A stretch of 64,000 bases of DNA from an uncultured Clostridia bacterium (GCA_944349515.1 CALVNE010000001.1:87232-151231); one strand, 5' to 3'; shown: positions 3,382 to 62,179, counted from the first letter of the stretch. The notes: generated by a model not told the origin, from the sequence alone. Numbers and translations: made by a program.

Positions 3382-3394
3382 TTAACTTTTCTAG

Positions 3395-3483
3395 TGTAGA
3401 AAAGCTACAAAAGACGCCGGGGAGTTTCGATTCTCCCCGGAGCCCCTGCAAACGACTTACTTTAAAAAAGTAAGCAAAAAGTG
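3395..3483 (+). repeat. Copy 1 of a ~90-nt three-hairpin module, in the rpoB 3' UTR
   Basis: Hairpin A: TGTAG-aaaag-CTACA (3395-3409). Hairpin B: CCGGGGAG-tttcgatt-CTCCCCGG (3417-3440). Hairpin C: CTTACTTT-aaa-AAAGTAAG (3456-3474). About 75 nt are near-identical to 3631-3706. Confidence 0.8.
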
Positions 3484-3587: not shown

Positions 3588-3613
3588 AAATGCAAGACTA
3601 AAATTTAAACTTT

Positions 3614-3707
3614 TGTAGCGCCCAAAAGTTACAAAAGACATTGGGGAGTTTCGATTCTCCCCGGAGCCCCTGCAAACGACTTACTTTAAAAAAGTAAGCA
3701 AAAGTGG
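3614..3707 (+). repeat. Copy 2 of the three-hairpin module, in the 5' UTR of the orphan ORF
   Basis: It has the same three hairpins as copy 1. In stem B, CC becomes TT, which still pairs as U.G with the 3' GG. In stem A, CTACA becomes TTACA, which pairs as G.U. Confidence 0.8.
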
Positions 3708-13187: not shown

Positions 13188-13238
13188 TGCATACCACACA
13201 ATATGTGGTGTAGTATGATTGCATACTACCATGTATAT
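13188..13238. repeat. Palindromic interspersed element, copy A (three half-sites)
   Basis: The sequence is TGCATACCACACAATAT / ATGTGGTGTAGTATGA / TTGCATACTACCATGTAT. The half-site consensus is TGCATACTACACCATAT. Confidence 0.7.
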
Positions 13239-33048: not shown

Positions 33049-33083
33049 ATATGGCGTAGTATGCATTGCATAATACACCATAT
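33049..33083. repeat. Palindromic interspersed element, copy B (cleanest 17-1-17 form)
   Basis: ATATGGCGTAGTATGCA-T-TGCATAATACACCATAT, with 15 of 17 arm positions complementary. Confidence 0.8.
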
Positions 33084-33282
33084 ATTGTGCTGTTTAGTTT
33101 TTTTGCAATTGCTATTACGATAATTTTAAATAGTGTTTTAATTAGTATTTAAAAATAAGTTTTCTTAGTTTAGTGGCAAAGTATTTCTTGCGTATTGTTT
33201 TTTAAAGTGAGTTTTAAACTTGTAAATTTTGTTTTTGTAAGTTGGTGTTTTTTCCACTTATTTGATAATCGCTTAACTAAAA

Positions 33283-37862: not shown

Positions 37863-38186
37863 ATGGAAAACGAAATGACTGAAAGACGAAAAAATCTCAT
37901 CAACCGCGTGGGCTATTTTAGAACAAAAGCAAGGCTCAGTGCGCGTGATTTATCGCTTAGAATGGGTAAGTCGCCGGGATATATAACCAAATTTGAGGCG
38001 GGCGGAATCAATTTGCCCATGGACGTCCTTTTCGACATCATGGAAATTTTGGGTGTGTCTGAGGAGGAATTCTTCTCTTGTGACCCAGAAAAATATGCGC
38101 GAGATAAAAAATTTTTAATGAAATATCGAAATCTTTCAAAAGAAAATCAAGATTTAGTTTTTAATATAATGGAAAGTTTAAAGTGA
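37863..38186 (+). CDS. XRE-family helix-turn-helix transcriptional regulator
   Basis: The HTH_3 pattern is LSARDLSLRMGKSPGYITKFEAGGINLPMDVLFDIMEILGVS. Confidence 0.8.
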   Translation: MENEMTERRKNLINRVGYFRTKARLSARDLSLRMGKSPGYITKFEAGGINLPMDVLFDIMEILGVSEEEFFSCDPEKYARDKKFLMKYRNLSKENQDLVFNIMESLK

Positions 38187-38191
38187 TTTAC

Positions 38192-38221
38192 TTGACAAGG
38201 GCTCGTCCCGGGTGCTAAAAT
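38192..38221 (+). promoter_or_regulatory. Promoter, TTGACA-18-TGcTAAAAT (extended -10)
   Basis: It lies only about 18 nt before the trpS ATG. That leaves no room for a T-box leader. Confidence 0.55.
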
Positions 38222-38238: not shown

Positions 38239-39225
38239 ATGAAAAGATTTGTGACGGGTATTAAGCCGACCGGTTACGCCCATATAGGCAACTACTTTGG
38301 CGCAATCAAGCCGGCAATTGAACTTAGTAGGGGAAAGGAGTATGAGTGCTTCTATTTTATCGCAGACTATCATGCGCTCACCACGCTGAACAGTAAGGCG
38401 GAAATGAAAGAGTATTTTTACAACATCGCTTGCACATGGCTTGCCTGTGGACTCGACCCCGAAAAGGTGGTTTTTTACCGTCAATCGGATATCAAAGAGG
38501 ACTTTGAACTTAATTGGATACTTTGCAATGTCACGCCTAAGGGGCTTATGAACAGGGCACACGCGTATAAGGCGTGTGTGGAAAAAAACGAGGCAAATGG
38601 ACTAGATAGAGATGACGGCGTCAATATGGGGCTTTATAACTATCCAATTTTGATGAGTGCTGACATCATGCTTTTTGATGCCGACTATGTGCCTGTCGGG
38701 CTCGACCAAAAACAACATATTGAAATTGCACGAGATATTGCTCATAATTTTAATGTAAAATACGGCGAAACTTTGAAAGAGCCAATGGAGTTTATCGACA
38801 AAAATAACAACACGCTTGTGGGGCTTGACGGACGTAAGATGAGTAAAAGTTATAATAACACCATTAAACTATTCAGTGAAGAGAAGGAATTAAAAAAGAG
38901 CATTTTCAGAGTGGTCACCGATAGCCGTCTGCCGGGCGAACCTAAGGACACGGATTGCACTGTGAATAAACTTTACAAGTTGTTTGTGAGTGAAAGTGAG
39001 GCAAAGGCGTTTGAAGAGGACCTCTTAAAAGGCCTTGGTTGGGGTGACGCCAAAAAGCGTCTTTTTGAGGTGGCAAATAGTTATATCTCTCCGATGAGAG
39101 AAAAGTTTAACTACTATATGGCGCATAAGGACGAGGTTGACAAGATTTTGGACGCAGGCGCTGTGAAGGCGCGTGTGGTAGCGAAAGAGGTGCTAGATAG
39201 AGTTAGAAAGGCAATCGGCGTGTAA
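38239..39225 (+). CDS. trpS: Tryptophanyl-tRNA synthetase
   Basis: 328 aa. GIKPTGYAHIGNY is a HIGH-like motif, and KMSKS is present. Confidence 0.92.
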   Translation: MKRFVTGIKPTGYAHIGNYFGAIKPAIELSRGKEYECFYFIADYHALTTLNSKAEMKEYFYNIACTWLACGLDPEKVVFYRQSDIKEDFELNWILCNVTPKGLMNRAHAYKACVEKNEANGLDRDDGVNMGLYNYPILMSADIMLFDADYVPVGLDQKQHIEIARDIAHNFNVKYGETLKEPMEFIDKNNNTLVGLDGRKMSKSYNNTIKLFSEEKELKKSIFRVVTDSRLPGEPKDTDCTVNKLYKLFVSESEAKAFEEDLLKGLGWGDAKKRLFEVANSYISPMREKFNYYMAHKDEVDKILDAGAVKARVVAKEVLDRVRKAIGV

Positions 39226-39372
39226 GCGGGCGGGCGCAAGGCAAGCGCGGGCTAACCGCGCTTGCGCTCGCCGAATGGCGAGCCTTCTTCCCGCGCGGAA
39301 GGGCAAGGCGAAGAGGCGCTAAAAAAATCTGTGGTGCGCGGGAAGGACTTGCGCCCGCCAAAGGCGCTCACC
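39226..39372 (+). ncRNA. GC-rich multi-hairpin element between trpS and alaS (unclassified)
   Basis: A 12-bp closing stem pairs GGCGGGCGCAAG (39229-39240) with CTTGCGCCCGCC (39348-39359). Inside are GCAAGCGCGG-gctaa-CCGCGCTTGC (39241-39265), GCTCGCC-gaat-GGCGAGC (39266-39283) and further GC stems. Confidence 0.6.
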
Positions 39373-39444
39373 GGAACCCGTTTCCTAAGAGGAAATAATA
39401 ATTAAAACAACAACTTTTGTAAGTTAATAGGAGTTAGATAAAAG

Positions 39445-41262
39445 ATGATAAGCGATATAGAAATAAAAAACAAATGGTTTGAATTTTTTGAAAGCAAGGG
39501 CTTTAAGAGGATAGATAGTTATTCTATCATTCCGGAGAATGACCCGACCGTGCTATTCACCACCGCTGGTATGCACCCACTTGTGCCATACCTACTTGGC
39601 GAAAAGCACCCAAAAGGCAACAAGATATGTAACATTCAGCGTTGCATACGCACCACCGACATCGACGAAGTGGGCGATGACAGTCACCTCACCTTTTTTG
39701 AAATGCTGGGCAACTGGTTTTTGGGCGAGTGCGACAAAAAGAAGATGATTGAATATTCTTACGAATTTATCACAAGCCCAAAATATTTGGGGATTGATAA
39801 GTCACGCGTGGCAACCACGGTTTTTGCCGGCGACGAACATGCTCCGCGCGACGAGTTTGCATATAACACTTGGAAGGCGTGCGGAATTGAAAACGTCTAT
39901 TATTTAGACAAAAAGCACAATTGGTGGGCGCTTGGTGGCGGTGTTGGACCTTGCGGACCTGACACCGAGATGTTCCTTGACACCGGCAAAGAGAAGTGTT
40001 CGGAAAGTTGCTCGCCGGCGTGCGACTGCGGGAAATACTTAGAGTTTTGGAACGATGTTTTCATGCAATATGTAGTGGAGAAAGAGGGCGACCAAGTGAA
40101 GCCTCTTTCTAAGCCGAACATCGACACCGGCATGGGCTTAGAGCGCGCCATGGTGGTGATAAATGGACTTAGTTCCGTCTATGATTACGGCGTTTTGAAA
40201 AATGCCATCGACCTTATTGAGTCCCGCGCAGGTGTGAAATACCTTGAAAGCGAAAAATCAAAGCGTTCCTATCGAATTATAGCCGACCATATCCGCTCTG
40301 CCCTTTTCATTTTGGGCGATGAAAGAGGGGTTGTGCCAAGTAACGTTGGGCAAGGTTATATTTTGAGGCGACTTATTAGGCGCGCGGTCAACTGCGCAAG
40401 AGATATCAAACTTGACACCAAGTATTTTTCGAACCTTATCGACATCTACGTTGACAGGCACGGTGAGGACTACGCGGACATCAAGAAAAATCGCGAATTT
40501 GCAAAAACCGAACTTCAAAAGGAAGTGGAAAAATTCTCAAAGGCGCTGGAAGAAGGCCACAAGGAATTTGACAAGGTGATTGCCGGCATTGAAAAGCATA
40601 AGGAGTTTGCCTTAAAAAACGGCGAAATTGTACCGTCGGTTATCTCGGGCAAGGCATGTTTTAGGCTTTACGACACCTTTGGTTTTCCTTTTGAACTGAC
40701 AAAGGAACTTGCGAAAGAGATAGGCTTTAGCGTCGACGAAGAAGGCTACAAAAAGGCTTATGCTGAGCACCAAGAGAAGAGTAGATCTGCCTCTGCGGGC
40801 ACTTTCAAGGGCGGGCTTGCTGATACGTCCGAAAAAAGCGCCTATCTTCACACGGCAACACACCTACTTATGGCAGGACTGAGAAAGATGTTCGGCGCGG
40901 GCGTTATGCAGAAGGGCTCGAACATCACGCCGGAGCGCATGAGGCTGGACTTTAACGTTGACCACAAACTCACTGCGGAAGAGTTAAAAACACTTGAAGA
41001 TTTTGTCAATGACAACATAAAACGCGAAATCCCTGTCACCTTTGAAGAGATGTCGCTTGACGAGGCGAAAAAAAGCGGCGCAGTTGGCGTGTTTGAAAGT
41101 AAGTACGGCGAAAAGGTGAAAGTTTACACAATTGGCGATGTTTCCAAGGAAATCTGTGGCGGACCGCACGCTAAGAACACCAAAGACCTTCATCATTTCA
41201 AAATTGTGAAAGAGGAAAGTTCGTCGGCGGGCATAAGACGAATAAAGGCGATTTTAGATTAA
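39445..41262 (+). CDS. alaS: Alanyl-tRNA synthetase, short form (605 aa, no C-Ala domain)
   Basis: It has the class II core FTTAGMHP...FFEMLGNW. The editing-domain motifs HTATHLL and CGGPH lie near the C-terminus, and the protein ends right after the editing domain. Confidence 0.88.
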   Translation: MISDIEIKNKWFEFFESKGFKRIDSYSIIPENDPTVLFTTAGMHPLVPYLLGEKHPKGNKICNIQRCIRTTDIDEVGDDSHLTFFEMLGNWFLGECDKKKMIEYSYEFITSPKYLGIDKSRVATTVFAGDEHAPRDEFAYNTWKACGIENVYYLDKKHNWWALGGGVGPCGPDTEMFLDTGKEKCSESCSPACDCGKYLEFWNDVFMQYVVEKEGDQVKPLSKPNIDTGMGLERAMVVINGLSSVYDYGVLKNAIDLIESRAGVKYLESEKSKRSYRIIADHIRSALFILGDERGVVPSNVGQGYILRRLIRRAVNCARDIKLDTKYFSNLIDIYVDRHGEDYADIKKNREFAKTELQKEVEKFSKALEEGHKEFDKVIAGIEKHKEFALKNGEIVPSVISGKACFRLYDTFGFPFELTKELAKEIGFSVDEEGYKKAYAEHQEKSRSASAGTFKGGLADTSEKSAYLHTATHLLMAGLRKMFGAGVMQKGSNITPERMRLDFNVDHKLTAEELKTLEDFVNDNIKREIPVTFEEMSLDEAKKSGAVGVFESKYGEKVKVYTIGDVSKEICGGPHAKNTKDLHHFKIVKEESSSAGIRRIKAILD

Positions 41263-41267
41263 ATGCC

Positions 41268-41296
41268 TTGACAAGGGCGTTTAAGATTGTTAGAAT
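41268..41296 (+). promoter_or_regulatory. Promoter, TTGACA-17-TAGAAT
   Basis: The box spacing is exact. It lies upstream of the 41402 gene. Confidence 0.5.
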
Positions 41297-46075: not shown

Positions 46076-46127
46076 AGTATTATGCAACAAGATATGGTGT
46101 AGTATGCAAGAATGCTACACCGTGTAT
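46076..46127. repeat. Palindromic interspersed element, copy C
   Basis: AGTATTATGCAA..ATATGGTGTAGTATGCA-agaa-TGCTACACCGTGTAT. Confidence 0.7.
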
Positions 46128-46349
46128 TTTTAATGTTGTTTTGGAAATTTTAGGATTTTGTTCGCCTATTTTTATTTTCTTTGCGCGAAACAATGAAAAT
46201 TTTAGTTTAGGATTTTAGTTAATTTTTTGAGGACTATCGCTTTTTTTAGGAAAAATATTTTATAAGCAGGTCAATGCTTTCGCTGATTCCTTTAAAAGTG
46301 CTTTTAAATTTTAGGATTAGATAAAAATTTGCAAAGTGTTAGTTACACT

Positions 46350-51073: not shown

Positions 51074-51078
51074 ACTAT

Positions 51079-51118
51079 TTATGGTGTATTATGCATTGCA
51101 TACTACACCACATATGGT
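51079..51118. repeat. Palindromic interspersed element, copy D
   Basis: TTATGGTGTATTATGCA-T-TGCATACTACACCACAT, then ATGGT. It sits 17 nt upstream of the ytfJ ATG. Confidence 0.8.
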
Positions 51119-56184: not shown

Positions 56185-57327
56185 ATGGAAAATTATATTG
56201 ATAACATAATAAAAGCGATAAGGCAAGATAGAAATGCGCAAGATAAACTTATCAACTATCTAAAATCAACCGGCGACACTGAGTTGTTTACCGATCTTTC
56301 TTCTTCCGGGAAAATGCTACTAGAAGTTGCAGCGGGAGAAAAACTGAAATTGTTCATTTTAGAGAATTATCCAGAACTTGCGCGGGTTCAAAATAAGAAG
56401 GGCAACACTATTTTGTTTGATACAACTGAGAAGGTGCACTGTAAGGCGCTAGAAGTGGACCCAAGCCTTGCGCGTATTCAAAATGAGGACGGTGAAACAT
56501 TTTTACATATATGTAATAGATTTTACATGGCGCCAAACATGGCACCAATTTTAGCCCTAGAAATTGACCCGACTCTTGCGCGGATACAGGATAAAAGAGG
56601 TAGAACGTTTGTTCATGGGTCTGATGCCGAAGTAATGCTTAAAGCGTTAGAGGTAGACCCAAGTCTTGCACGCATTCAGGATAATGACGGTCAAACATTT
56701 TTGTTTTTTTACAGTTTGTATAAACGCTCAAAAGATGTTGTACTTAAAGCATTAGAGGTGGACGCGAGCCTTGCGCAGATTAAGGATAACGACGGAGAAA
56801 CATTTTTGCACAACATCACAATCATAAAATATCCGCCGGTGGCAAGCGTGGATACTGCAATGGCTGTGCTAAAGGCATATCCAGAACTTGCAAGAATTAA
56901 AGACAGTGAAGGTAACACCTTTCTGCACTACGCGAATACTAGAAGTTTTGAAGATGTGATTGTGGAGGCACTAAAAATCGACCCAATCCTTGCGGAAATT
57001 CAAAATAAACAAGGCGACACATTTTTGCACACCTTCTTTGACGGGCCAGACATGTTTCAACTTCCTTACACTAAGTTATTGACAGCATTAAAATCTCACC
57101 CAAATCTTGCGCGAATTCAAAATGCGGACGGCGATACGTATTTGCATTATGCTGCCAAATTTGGGCATAAAAACATCAAGGAGTTTGCCGAAAGTTTGGA
57201 CCCGAGCCTTGCCGAAATTCGAAACGAAAACGGGCAAACATACCTTGATTTGTTCCCTAAAAAAAGTGTTGAAGAGTTAAAAATTTCCCTCGACGAAGTT
57301 TTGGATGAAAGAAGAAGAGAACTTTAA
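56185..57327 (+). CDS. Ankyrin-like repeat protein (~9 degenerate repeats)
   Basis: The recurrent unit is ALEVDPSLARIQ(D/N)xDG(E/Q)TFLH. This fits the ankyrin G-x-T-x-LH core. Confidence 0.7.
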   Translation: MENYIDNIIKAIRQDRNAQDKLINYLKSTGDTELFTDLSSSGKMLLEVAAGEKLKLFILENYPELARVQNKKGNTILFDTTEKVHCKALEVDPSLARIQNEDGETFLHICNRFYMAPNMAPILALEIDPTLARIQDKRGRTFVHGSDAEVMLKALEVDPSLARIQDNDGQTFLFFYSLYKRSKDVVLKALEVDASLAQIKDNDGETFLHNITIIKYPPVASVDTAMAVLKAYPELARIKDSEGNTFLHYANTRSFEDVIVEALKIDPILAEIQNKQGDTFLHTFFDGPDMFQLPYTKLLTALKSHPNLARIQNADGDTYLHYAAKFGHKNIKEFAESLDPSLAEIRNENGQTYLDLFPKKSVEELKISLDEVLDERRREL

Positions 57328-58856: not shown

Positions 58857-58982
58857 TATCCATAGAGAGTGTGCGAGGGACAGCCCCTTTGACCACACAG
58901 CAACCTACATTTTGCAAGGTGCTAATGGCTGACCGATGGTGCTTTAAAAATTTATTTAACCATCGGAAACGATGGTTTTTTC
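58857..58982 (+). promoter_or_regulatory. SAM-I (S-box) riboswitch with terminator
   Basis: The aptamer reads CCATAGAGAGTGTGCGAGGGACAGCCCCTTTGACCACACAGCAACC...AGGTGCTAATGG...CGATGG. The terminator AACCATCG-gaaa-CGATGGTT plus T-run lies at 58958-58981. It sits upstream of metK. Confidence 0.9.
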
Positions 58983-59105: not shown

Positions 59106-60227
59106 ATGAAAAAGATAGTTACAAGTGAAAGTGTAAACATCGGGCATCCAGATAAAACCTGCGATTATATCGCCGATTGCTTTCTTGATGAGGCATTAAA
59201 GCAGGATAAATTTAGTCAAATGGCGGTGGAGTGCGCCATAAAAAACAACAAACTTTTCATATACGGCGAGGCGACAACCAGCGCAAAGTTAGACTATGAA
59301 AAGATTGCCTTAAAAGCACTTAGAGAAATTGGTTATAAGGAAGATTTTGAGATAATAAAAGAAATTAGCGAGCAAAGCGCGGAGTTAAACCGAGCGGTGG
59401 TCAAAGATAAACTTTGCGCCAACGACCAAGGCTTAGTGTTTGGATACGCCACAAATGAAACGCCGGAGTTTATGCCTCTGCCAATTATGGTAGCACATAA
59501 GTTGATGATGAACTATGATGAATTTAGGCGTAAAGATGAAAATTTCTTTTTTGATGCAAAAAGTCAAGTTTCAGTTTTATATGAAGATGATAAGCCTAAG
59601 TATATCACAAACATCTTAGTAAGTGTGTCACATAGCGAAGATATTTCAAACGAAGAGATTTGTAAAAGAATATTAGAAAATGTCGTTTTAAAAACACTTG
59701 CAGAATATGAAAATTATTATAACGATAAAACTAAGATTATGATAAATCCAAGTGGTAGATTTACTATATATGGAAGCTACGGCGATTCGGGTTGCGTGGG
59801 CAGAAAGATTGTTGTGGATAGTTACGGCGGAGTGGCGCGTGTTGGAGGCGGGTGTTTCTCTTCTAAAAATGCCACCAAAGTGGATAGAAGTGGGGCATAT
59901 TATGCACGATACGTGGCAAAAAATATTGTGGCGAATAATCTTGCTGAACGTTGCGAGGTGGAAGCGGACTATGCGATTGGGCTTGAGAATGCACTCAATA
60001 TCAACATTGACTGCTTTGGAACGAACAAATTGCCAATGGAAGAGATTTATGAGATTGTGAAAAGTAATTTTGATTTTTCCCTTCAAAATATCATAACAGA
60101 ACTTGACCTTTTAAAGCCAATTTATAAAAATACGGCATGCTTTGGGCATTTTGGAAGGGAAGAATTTAGTTGGGAGAAGGTTAAGGCGAACCTTCGGTTC
60201 GCAGTGAAGCAAACGCAAAGCGTTTGA
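59106..60227 (+). CDS. metK: S-adenosylmethionine synthetase (divergent, 373 aa)
   Basis: It has SESVNIGHPDKTCD, NDQGLVFGYA, GRKIVVDSYGG and KVDRSGAYYARY. Its last ~15 codons overlap the hairpin array. Confidence 0.9.
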   Translation: MKKIVTSESVNIGHPDKTCDYIADCFLDEALKQDKFSQMAVECAIKNNKLFIYGEATTSAKLDYEKIALKALREIGYKEDFEIIKEISEQSAELNRAVVKDKLCANDQGLVFGYATNETPEFMPLPIMVAHKLMMNYDEFRRKDENFFFDAKSQVSVLYEDDKPKYITNILVSVSHSEDISNEEICKRILENVVLKTLAEYENYYNDKTKIMINPSGRFTIYGSYGDSGCVGRKIVVDSYGGVARVGGGCFSSKNATKVDRSGAYYARYVAKNIVANNLAERCEVEADYAIGLENALNINIDCFGTNKLPMEEIYEIVKSNFDFSLQNIITELDLLKPIYKNTACFGHFGREEFSWEKVKANLRFAVKQTQSV

Positions 60228-60330
60228 GTGAAGGGAAGGCGGAGCCTTCCAGTGAAGGAGCACTAAAGTGTTCAGTGAAGAGAAATCTTGCGATTTCTAG
60301 TGAAGGCAAACCTTGCGGTTTGCAGTTGTG
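60178..60330 (+). repeat. Array of six unrelated 7-bp-stem hairpins separated by the invariant heptamer AGTGAAG
   Basis: The hairpins lie at 60186-60202, 60210-60226, 60234-60250, 60258-60273, 60281-60298 and 60306-60323. AGTGAAG starts at 60203, 60227, 60251, 60274 and 60299. Confidence 0.9.
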
Positions 60331-60344
60331 GAAAATTTTAAAGA

Positions 60345-60366
60345 CAAACGCTAGCCCGTTTTTTTC
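60345..60366 (+). terminator. Weak candidate metK terminator
   Basis: AAACG-ctagcc-CGTTT followed by T-run. The stem is only 5 bp. Confidence 0.3.
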
Positions 60367-60457
60367 CTTCACTCTTCACTCTTCACTTTCTAAATTTATC
60401 AAAAACTCTTCACTGCGAGCCAATGGCTCGCCTTCACTTTATTCTCTTCACTTTTTT
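60367..60457 (-). repeat. Six AGTGAAG heptads in inverted orientation (CTTCACT on +), one flanked hairpin
   Basis: CTTCACT starts at 60367, 60374, 60381, 60408, 60432 and 60446. The hairpin GCGAGCC-aat-GGCTCGC lies at 60415-60431. The last heptad is followed by T6. Confidence 0.85.
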
Positions 60458-60558: not shown

Positions 60559-61563
60559 ATGAAAGTTGTTGTGGACGCTTTTGGTGGCGATAATGCTCCT
60601 AAGGAAGTGGTGGAAGGCGCCATTATGGCGGTAAATCAAAATAAAGGCCTCACCGTTGTTTTAACCGGCGACGAGAAGAAGATTAAAGAGGTTTTAAACA
60701 GCAGAAATGAGCGTATTGAAATTGTGCACTCAAGCGAGGTCATCACAAATGACGACACGCCGACGGTTGCGATAAGGCAGAAGAAGGACTCTTCGCTTGT
60801 TAAGGCGTTTGACCTTTTGAAAGAAGATAAGGATGTTATCGGGCTGGTGTCTGCGGGTAGCACGGGCGCCATACTTTCTGGCGCAATTATGAAGATAGGG
60901 CGCATTAAGGGCATATCGCGCCCAGCACTTGGACCTATTCTTCCAACTAAAAAGGGAAGCGATGTGATAATTATCGACAGCGGTGCGAATGTTGACTGCA
61001 AGAGCATAAACCTACTCCACTTTGCCATTATGGGCAGCGCGTATTACTCGATTGTGGAAGGTGTGGAGCATCCGCGCATTGCGCTACTCAACAACGGAAC
61101 GGAAGAGCATAAGGGCAACGAACTTGTGAAAGAAACCTACCCTCTTATGAAGAAACTGCCGATAAACTTTGTTGGCAATGTGGAAGGCAAGGAAGTTATG
61201 TCTGGCAATGTCGATGTTATAGTCACTGACGGCTTTGCTGGAAATGCGCTTTTGAAAGGTGTGGAGGGCACTGCAAGCGCGATTCTTTCGGTATTAAAAA
61301 GTGAGATAAAATCTAGACCTATGTCTATGATAGGCGCGCTTTTCATGAAAAAGACTTTTAAATCACTTAAAACCAAACTTGACGCCAACAAGCACGGCGG
61401 TGCACCATTCTTGGGCGTTAAAAAACTTATTGTGAAGAACCACGGCTCATGCGGTCGCGACAATATACTAGCGTCTATCAATCAGGTTGTCAAACTTCAT
61501 GAAAACAACCTTATTGAAAAAATTGAAAAGATGATTGGAGATATGAACATTGAAGAAAATTGA
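60559..61563 (+). CDS. plsX: Phosphate acyltransferase PlsX
   Basis: It starts MKVVVDAFGGDNAP after the RBS GGAGAG. The track's upstream extension is spurious. Confidence 0.92.
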   Translation: MKVVVDAFGGDNAPKEVVEGAIMAVNQNKGLTVVLTGDEKKIKEVLNSRNERIEIVHSSEVITNDDTPTVAIRQKKDSSLVKAFDLLKEDKDVIGLVSAGSTGAILSGAIMKIGRIKGISRPALGPILPTKKGSDVIIIDSGANVDCKSINLLHFAIMGSAYYSIVEGVEHPRIALLNNGTEEHKGNELVKETYPLMKKLPINFVGNVEGKEVMSGNVDVIVTDGFAGNALLKGVEGTASAILSVLKSEIKSRPMSMIGALFMKKTFKSLKTKLDANKHGGAPFLGVKKLIVKNHGSCGRDNILASINQVVKLHENNLIEKIEKMIGDMNIEEN

Positions 61564-62179
61564 TGAAAAATTAGGCGTGGAGTTTAAAAACAGAAAGTAT
61601 ATCGACGAGGCGCTCACTCATCCGTCCAAATCTAAAAATAACTATCAGCGTTTGGAGTTTTTGGGCGACAGCATTTTAGACTTTTTGGTCGGCGAATATC
61701 TCTTTTTAAACTCCAATAAGTCAGAGGGCGATTTAACGGTGCTTCGCGCCCACTTTGTCTCCGAGGAATATCTTTCTGAGTGTTTCGATAAACTTGACGT
61801 AGAGAGCGAGTTAAATTTAGGCAAAAGTTTGCAAGGTAAGGTGACACGCGCCATTAAGGGCGATATTTTTGAGGCGATAATAGGCGCGATATACCTTGAA
61901 AAAGGCATTGAGTTTACAAGAAATTTCATAATCGAAAAATTGAATTTAGAGAACTTTGAAAATGTTGAGGACGATAACTATAAATCGCAACTTCAAGAAC
62001 TTGTGCAGGCGAATTTTAAATGCACAATGAAGTATGTGACCGAGCGCGAGGGCGACAACTTTGTTTCCAAATTTTACATGGACGAGGACCTAATTTCCAC
62101 CGGCTATGGCAAGGACAAAATTAGTGCCGAGCAGAACGCCGCCTTTGTTGCCATCAAAAAACTTTTTAAAGACGAGTGA
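61550..62179 (+). CDS. rnc: Ribonuclease III
   Basis: It has ERLEFLGDSILDF-type signature (QRLEFLGDSILDFLV) and a C-terminal dsRBD. The TTG start lies 9 nt after GGAG and overlaps the plsX stop. Confidence 0.88.
   Translation: MKKIDEKLGVEFKNRKYIDEALTHPSKSKNNYQRLEFLGDSILDFLVGEYLFLNSNKSEGDLTVLRAHFVSEEYLSECFDKLDVESELNLGKSLQGKVTRAIKGDIFEAIIGAIYLEKGIEFTRNFIIEKLNLENFENVEDDNYKSQLQELVQANFKCTMKYVTEREGDNFVSKFYMDEDLISTGYGKDKISAEQNAAFVAIKKLFKDE

Follow-up and report, generated by a model that had tools for sequence, protein, structure and literature searches.

What kind of element is the strongly GC-rich, multi-stemmed sequence that lies between two aminoacyl-tRNA synthetase genes in an uncultured Clostridia bacterium, and what does it do there? 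The DNA analysed was a single 64-kb stretch (64,000 nt), referred to below as the window. The upstream gene, trpS (38239-39225, + strand; 328 aa; stop codon TAA at 39223-39225), encodes a class I Trp/Tyr-type synthetase (PF00579, E 8e-56) that was taken as the tryptophanyl-tRNA synthetase, TrpRS. The downstream gene, alaS (39445-41262, + strand), encodes a short, 605-aa form of alanyl-tRNA synthetase, AlaRS (PF01411, E 5e-120, and PF07973). AlaRS has this short form (600-607 aa) across the whole group of relatives, and Pfam matches are confined to its catalytic and SAD domains; the enzyme thus appears to lack the C-terminal part found in the usual, longer bacterial form. No T-box leader precedes trpS or alaS. 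The gap between the two genes holds a 131-base GC-rich element (39229-39359, + strand), which begins 3 nt past the trpS stop codon. The earlier note on this DNA had described a switch to GC-rich sequence immediately after that codon, and this was borne out: the highest GC content of any 60-nt segment in the whole window, 0.75 compared to 0.40 overall, was found at 39200-39324, and a second GC peak lies close by at 39326-39393. Its description of the genome as AT-rich is correct only in part, GC content being 40% over the window, about 45-50% in coding DNA and about 20% in intergenic DNA.

The minimum free energy (MFE) fold of 39228-39359 is a closed four-way junction of -89.7 kcal/mol. Dinucleotide shuffles of the same segment gave a mean of -60.2 ± 3.8 kcal/mol (z -7.8), and none of the 200 shuffles was equally stable. 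The junction is closed by a perfect 12-bp stem, P1, in which the 5' strand GGCGGGCGCAAG (39229-39240, + strand) pairs with its exact reverse complement CTTGCGCCCGCC (39348-39359, + strand). Within P1, all on the + strand, lie hairpin A (39241-39265; 10 bp with the 5-nt loop GCTAA), hairpin B (39266-39283; GCTCGCC-GAAT-GGCGAGC, 7 bp with the loop GAAT) and arm C, whose 13-bp stem, including two G·U pairs, joins 39285-39297 to 39335-39347 and carries a 37-nt, A-rich, weakly paired apical region (39298-39334). The helices P1, A, B and C abut with at most one unpaired base, hence the description as a closed four-way junction. The three perfect stems P1, A and B had been predicted before and all hold. 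The window sequence does allow a further pairing predicted at that time, CCTTCTTCC with GAAGAGG, but this differs from the MFE pairing and is not conserved as such across the other clades. In a census of the other perfect GC-rich hairpins of at least 7 bp in the window, one was a canonical terminator, one lay within trpS and one in a tRNA-like repeat, and the rest belonged to an array that follows metK, which marks the element out as unusual in the window. Past P1, a linker (39360-39444, + strand) becomes increasingly AT-rich towards alaS, carries the alaS Shine-Dalgarno sequence AGGAG (39429-39433, + strand) and is not conserved between clades.

A consensus scan for promoters and a scan for terminators were used to place the element within its transcript. 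The only strong + strand promoter ahead of position 41268 is predicted at 38192-38221, upstream of trpS (TTGACA-18-TAAAAT with an upstream TG; 11/12 matches to the consensus), and a further strong sigma-70-type promoter with an extended -10 TG lies just past alaS (41268-41296, + strand). The consensus scan found no + strand sigma-70-like promoter between the element and alaS, and none close to the trpS 3' end; the terminator scan found no hairpin followed by a U-run at or past the element and before alaS. These findings agree with the earlier note, which had reported neither a U-run nor an obvious promoter before alaS and had judged the element to be probably internal to a co-transcript. Since promoters lie only outside the gene pair and there is no U-tract terminator between the genes, trpS, the element and alaS would most simply form one bicistronic RNA, with the element internal to it. 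The regions of the two flanking promoters resemble each other over 37 nt (38166-38202 and 41242-41278; 73% identity, ending in CTTGACAAGGGC), and the promoters that bracket trpS-alaS are thus related in sequence.

Judged by its TrpRS relatives, the window belongs with Candidatus Caccovivens-like metagenome-assembled genomes of uncultured gut Clostridia/Christensenellales; the TrpS and AlaS clusters at 90% have 137 and 115 members, respectively. The earlier note had proposed looking for the element at the trpS-alaS junction of relatives and had counted its absence from all of them among the signs against it. It was found at this same junction in four related clades, comprising the window clade (L180-L183, L197 and L198), L001/L184/L189, L003/L027 and L004/L192/L195/L139, and in every copy it starts between -1 and +6 nt relative to the trpS stop codon. 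Two lineages have trpS next to alaS and no element: L002/L204, with an AT-rich 63-nt spacer (z -1.3), and L199, with an unrelated 215-nt spacer. A replacement structure in the L199 spacer was rejected on its z of -0.46. By both AlaRS and TrpRS identity L002 is nested among the element carriers. The simplest history would be that the element arose once, in the ancestor of the trpS-alaS clade, and was later lost twice; it is dispensable in L002/L204 and in L199. Further out, relatives whose TrpRS is at most 85% identical have no element and carry a U-tract terminator after trpS, followed by other genes. In relatives with 82-83% AlaRS identity, alaS follows clpX or an ABC transporter and has its own ordinary terminator and promoter, again with no element. 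This ruled out a leader that travels with alaS, and the element therefore belongs to the trpS-alaS junction within the trpS-alaS clade.

The trpS 3' end shows signs of rearrangement in one set of loci. L205 (1126-1366), L206 (1137-1169) and L204 (2517-2579) encode the same TrpRS, with 99.8% nucleotide identity in trpS, and the sequence of L204 diverges from that of L205 and L206 directly past TAGAGATTTAAAAA. L204 runs on into alaS, whereas L205 continues with an apparent 3' end of another coding sequence, after which AGAGATTTAAAAA appears for a second time, followed by a gene for a membrane protein. From the position of this divergence, the trpS 3' junction appears to be a rearrangement breakpoint in L204-L206; alternatively, these contigs, which are of low coverage, may be chimeric.

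How far the fold has been kept was judged against the divergence of the surrounding sequence. Four-fold degenerate sites of alaS are 36-52% identical for most pairs of clades (63% for L001-L004) and the linker past the element is unalignable between clades, so neutral sequence has been largely randomised. Every orthologue folds into the same four-way junction, with z-scores from -3.6 to -7.8 over all clades and free energies from -50 to -90 kcal/mol. In a model-fitted alignment of 13 sequences (12 distinct rows), in which covariation covers only about four or five independent lineages, 94.1% of the pair cells form standard pairs compared to 84.0% after column shuffling, and none of 500 shuffles reached the observed value. 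Sliding the 3' partner by one to three columns reduced pairing to 28-55%. Over the same four or five lineages, both partners have changed in 13 pairs. Among the apparent swaps of G-C to C-G in P1, some reflect a register shift between GGGCGGGC and GGGCGC; P1 also changes from G-C to A-U in L003/L027 and has a G·U pair in L139, and within the L004 clade a T·T mismatch in L004 and L192 corresponds to an A-T pair in L195 and L139. In the lower part of arm C, one position is U-A, G-C or A-U across three clades, and adjoining positions alternate, some of them C-G or G-C and others C-G or U-A. A further arm C position is C-G in the window, U-A in L027 and a C·A mismatch in L003, as would be expected of an intermediate of compensatory change.

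Hairpins A and B behave differently from P1 and arm C. The lower six base pairs of hairpin A, GCAAGC/GCTTGC, are invariant in all clades except for one C-to-U change, giving G·U, in L001/L189, where the hairpin has two G·U pairs. A seventh pair, G-C, is usually added, and beyond this core the loop is 4-6 nt long in the other clades. The stem core of hairpin B, CTCGC/GCGAG, is invariant, and its basal pair is G-C except in the L004 clade, where it is A-U. The loops of hairpin B are free to vary (GAAT, GGCA, GAA, GAAG, GCGA, GTGA, GATGG). Likewise, the loop of hairpin A and the arm C tip differ in sequence and length from clade to clade and also inside clades, even within species, although many of the loops are of the GNRA type or similarly stable. 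Within the window clade, all five variable sites fall outside the 84 core-paired bases (one in loop A, three in loop B and one at the arm C tip). Changes to the core stems within the L004 clade are C-to-U changes that give G·U, plus the T·T/A-T site in P1. No unpaired nucleotide of the junction, loops or bulges is conserved across clades, and together with the free loops this is the pattern expected if stability alone were under selection. Collectively, the comparison of orthologues indicates that the fold is a real, selected structure and not a product of chance.

The same comparison points to the strand on which selection acts. G·U cells outnumber A·C cells by 34 to 3, many of the G·U in weak apical pairs. 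In each clade tested, the + strand fold is 2-9 kcal/mol more stable than that of the - strand, and C-to-U changes inside clades keep the pairing on the + strand only. Together these three observations argue that the mRNA-sense RNA is the selected molecule; single-stranded + strand DNA is a much less plausible candidate.

The Rfam scan proposed in the earlier note was run on the window and the orthologues, and no family reached its gathering score at the element. The note had also stated that the element is not a T-box, and we agree: no T-box matched at gathering score in the window, none was found at E up to 10 in 39100-39500 and none was found in four orthologous loci. The one notable sub-threshold Rfam match at the element was c-di-GMP-I (23.2 bits, E 0.019; cut-off 35 bits). 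It was ruled out, as the match requires large model deletions, extends into the trpS coding sequence and contradicts the covariation-supported P1; it is also absent from L001, L003, L004 and L027. Like it, matches to DUF1874 RNA, nuoG and BSnc150, obtained in a permissive-E Rfam search of the element and four orthologous loci, were at chance level. Neither ARAGORN, which called only a tRNA-Thr (25965-26040) in the window, nor the Rfam tRNA model found a tRNA at the element. A tRNA-like element was ruled out by arms of 12, 10, 7 and 13 bp and the lack of a conserved 3' tail, and no mimicry of tRNA features such as G3·U70 or CCA was found in the element. An intrinsic (Rho-independent) terminator was rejected because no clade has a U-run after P1, the bases directly past P1 in four clades being AAAGGCGC, GTGGCAGA, GCATAGC and GTATAAC. 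The alaS ribosome-binding site lies 40-85 nt downstream of the element and is not paired with it in any clade. With this site free and no terminator or antiterminator present, a switch acting on the alaS start and a T-box-type platform were ruled out; a generic metabolite riboswitch was excluded by the lack of both a conserved unpaired pocket and an expression platform. The genome-wide ncRNA discovery surveys that were compared mention no alaS- or trpS-associated motif. The element is thus a lineage-restricted structured RNA that Rfam does not contain, seen at a single locus in a single genus-level clade of gut Clostridia.

For its function, we infer that the element is an intercistronic stability, processing or insulator structure of the trpS-alaS mRNA, a reading to which we give a probability of roughly 45%. 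Taken undivided, the three roles offered in the earlier note (processing, stability or regulation) are still the best reading. What suggests a stability roadblock is the combination of covarying GC stems, free loops, a closed domain directly past a stop codon, no U-tract and an AU-rich stretch thereafter. The presence of an RNase III gene in the window also speaks for this reading. According to this model, an endonuclease would cut the AU-rich linker just downstream of the element and the four-way junction would block 3'-to-5' exonucleases, so that the trpS segment would gain a half-life of its own. Alternatively to this effect on trpS, the junction may protect one of the two halves after the linker has been cleaved. 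It may also insulate the initiation of alaS from ribosomes that are finishing trpS; as P1 starts within a few nucleotides of the stop codon, ribosomes terminating at trpS would have to melt it. Cleavage, protection and insulation together would set the TrpRS:AlaRS ratio.

The closest known systems are the stem-loops of selective RNA processing and stabilisation (SRPS). In Clostridium operons, SRPS stem-loops at 3' ends set the stoichiometry of transcripts and subunits through their free energy and shield the upstream segment after endonucleolytic cleavage (PMC4423207, PMC8219983); their processing sites or abundance skew come from differential RNA-seq or Northern data (PMC4423207). The trpS-alaS element is likewise a stable structure within a predicted operon that follows the upstream gene just past its stop codon, with no terminator tail and with an AU-rich single-stranded stretch after it. 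In contrast to the single stem-loop of an SRPS, it is a closed four-way junction of about 130 nt and -50 to -90 kcal/mol, and it occurs at one locus in one genus-level clade. Other classical intercistronic stabilising structures are those of the puf operon and the REP stabilisers. Several points count against a stability role. The four-way architecture is more complex than an exonuclease block needs, for which one hairpin is enough. The stems of A and B are invariant in sequence while P1 and arm C covary, which suggests a more specific role, for example one that involves a protein partner. To stabilise trpS over alaS is the opposite of the naive expectation, under which AlaRS would be the enzyme needed in larger amounts. 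Finally, two related lineages, L002/L204 and L199, do without the element.

Because of the needless complexity, the invariant A and B stems and the two lineages that lack the element, a specific protein-binding role is kept alive as the main rival. The element would then be a specific regulatory RNA, a platform that binds a small ligand or a protein (such as either synthetase, a ribosomal protein or some other RNA-binding protein) and controls alaS in a lineage without T-boxes on its aminoacyl-tRNA synthetase genes. We consider this unlikely overall, although a four-way junction more elaborate than a stability hairpin requires, A and B stems that stay invariant where P1 and arm C changed on both sides, and a position between two aminoacyl-tRNA synthetase genes in a window with no T-box anywhere all speak for it. 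It is opposed by the lack of conserved unpaired nucleotides, with loops that vary even inside species, by an alaS ribosome-binding site that is 40-85 nt away and never sequestered, and by the absence of a terminator or antiterminator. Mimicry of G3·U70 or CCA is absent, ARAGORN calls no tRNA at the element, the sub-threshold c-di-GMP-I match is not reproduced in orthologues, and more distant relatives have no element upstream of alaS. A bolder version makes the element the first representative of a new class of RNAs, four-way junctions that act in cis. A specific protein would read the invariant A and B stems, and the element would set or regulate the output of AlaRS and TrpRS in a Clostridia lineage that has given up T-box control of the two genes; this version appears improbable.

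The EAR (eps-associated RNA) of Bacillales and the put RNAs of phage HK022 are marked by conserved unpaired nucleotides or pseudoknots, and their targets are downstream terminators. The element resembles them in being a conserved, structured RNA of some 100-130 nt that separates genes of a single operon, and a cis action on its own transcript is proposed for it; unlike them, it has no Rfam match, no conserved single-stranded positions and no terminator to override. Like T-box leaders and the ThrRS operator it lies just ahead of a gene for an aminoacyl-tRNA synthetase in a genome of the Firmicutes type, but it lacks a specifier loop, a T-box sequence, a terminator/antiterminator, tRNA-like identity and contact with the ribosome-binding site.

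A second rival is that the element is a selfish or mobile GC-rich palindrome, similar to MITE, REP, ERIC or Correia elements or to yeast mitochondrial GC clusters, that landed once and brings the host no benefit. REP/BIME, ERIC and Correia (NEMIS) elements are multi-copy and often have target-site duplications or a dedicated transposase, and some elements of these kinds alter mRNA stability or are cut by RNase III. The likeness of the trpS-alaS element to these families and to the GC clusters lies in its GC-rich nested palindromes (here with P1 as a terminal inverted repeat), a composition foreign to the surrounding intergenic DNA, a place in transcribed intergenic sequence, and presence or absence at orthologous sites among close relatives, as in L002/L204 and L199; the apparent breakpoint at the junction in L205/L206 would also fit. 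However, no second copy was found in the 64-kb window (repeat search and covariance model) or in the related loci scanned (blastn, which the earlier note had proposed as a search for further copies, and covariance-model searches), and blastn gave no match to the element in phages or plasmids. The core pattern of hairpins A and B has at least 120 matches in metagenome contigs, mostly chance matches in GC-rich soil contigs. L139 is the only true orthologue among the metagenome matches listed, and among these matches the pattern occurs only once in the 235-kb contig behind L139; three matches in viral contigs were taken as chance. The best flank matches in eight orthologues are 4-5 nt long, with p of 0.19-0.93 against shuffles, and so give no target-site duplication; a flank similarity between GCAGAATAG and GCAGATAAC that was seen by eye also failed the shuffle test. 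All copies are orthologous, and the groups formed by element similarity track those formed by alaS similarity (L001 with L004), so that inheritance looks vertical. Over a divergence at which synonymous sites are close to saturation, a neutral GC-rich palindrome should have decayed, whereas here the pairing has persisted, the changes being compensatory or limited to G·U and specific to one strand. The inserted miniature element that had been offered as an alternative in the earlier note thus loses ground to the stability, processing or insulator reading, and we regard a mobile origin without host benefit as a poor explanation.

The element might also be a transcription pause or partial terminator without a U-tract that lowers read-through from trpS into alaS. 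It is a very stable GC-rich structure directly past the stop codon, at the place where distant relatives carry an ordinary terminator after trpS. No clade, however, has a U-run after P1, whereas the canonical terminators of the window genome and its relatives do have U-tracts; moreover, as alaS has no promoter of its own, efficient termination at the element would starve an essential gene, and this explanation is very unlikely. Least probable of all is a role at the DNA level (a cruciform or single-stranded DNA, a recombination or protein site) or a separate or antisense small RNA gene, since the perfect palindromes A and B, invariant like dimeric DNA-binding sites, the rearrangements at the trpS 3' junction and a weak - strand promoter-like site (39423-39395) are set against G·U over A·C and an energy difference that point to a + strand transcript, compensatory changes in P1 and arm C that binding to duplex DNA leaves unexplained, a - strand promoter that matches at only 9/12 positions in AT-rich DNA of an unconserved linker, and no + strand promoter near the trpS 3' end.

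If the stability, processing or insulator reading is true, the element would be a clean natural case of an RNA fold selected for stability alone, between two essential genes, and the element-free L002/L204 and L199 would be natural knock-outs in which an effect on operon stoichiometry is directly testable. GC-rich islands in intergenic DNA can thus reveal lineage-restricted structured RNAs that are absent from Rfam, although the reach of the present case is limited to one locus and one genus-level clade.

Kinship had been suggested between the element and hairpin-plus-CTTCACT units at 60408-60438. Hairpin B followed by CTTCTTC in the window does resemble GCGAGCC-AAT-GGCTCGC-CTTCACT. CTTCTTC, however, is the 5' strand of arm C, and in other clades its counterpart is CTTTTGG, TTTCTAG or deleted. 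An AGUGAA-like string is found at the arm C tip of the L001 and L004 clades and is not conserved in the window, L003, L027 or L195. Of 20 window matches to AGTGAAG/CTTCACT, 11 fall in the metK-plsX spacer and the rest are at chance level. There is thus no support for a common origin or a shared function of the element and the array at 60.2-60.45 kb. That array (60177-60455) extends from the metK 3' end to the plsX promoter and begins inside the end of metK (59106-60227), which is preceded by a SAM riboswitch (58857-58942). At 60186-60320 it has five or six short hairpins of differing, mostly GC-rich sequence, each followed by AGUGAAG, and it continues with a weak terminator-like hairpin, six CUUCACU units and one more GC hairpin. 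For the segment 60160-60470 the fold has a free energy of -116.5 kcal/mol (z -8.1) and is comb-like, with AGUGAAG units paired to CUUCACU units. L207 has an almost identical array. In the window the array precedes plsX-rnc(RNase III)-smc-ftsY and for that reason might be an RNase III target; the RNase III gene (61550-62179) was assigned by synteny with the gene annotated in L207.

Several other repeats were seen in the window. In a 96-nt direct repeat (3384-3479 and 3608-3703; 91% identical), a hairpin that resembles a T arm, CCGGGGAGTTTCGATTCTCCCCGG, precedes one that resembles a terminator; ARAGORN calls no tRNA in the repeat, which looks like duplicated 3' halves of tRNAs, for example attachment-site remnants. 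An exact 35-nt duplication (25733-25767 and 25961-25995) covers one end of the tRNA-Thr on the - strand (25965-26040); the second copy, 228 nt away and with no called tRNA, may be a tRNA fragment left by integration. A palindromic motif of about 40 nt, similar to TATGGTGTAGTATGCATTGCATACTACACCATA, occurs four times (33049-33088, 51074-51118, 13198-13238 and 46087-46128) and looks like a candidate operator or other protein-binding site common to several promoters. A 75-nt coding repeat, present at 56431-57027 as five diverged copies in tandem (61-79% identical) with spacings of 90-219 nt, indicates a repeat-domain protein.
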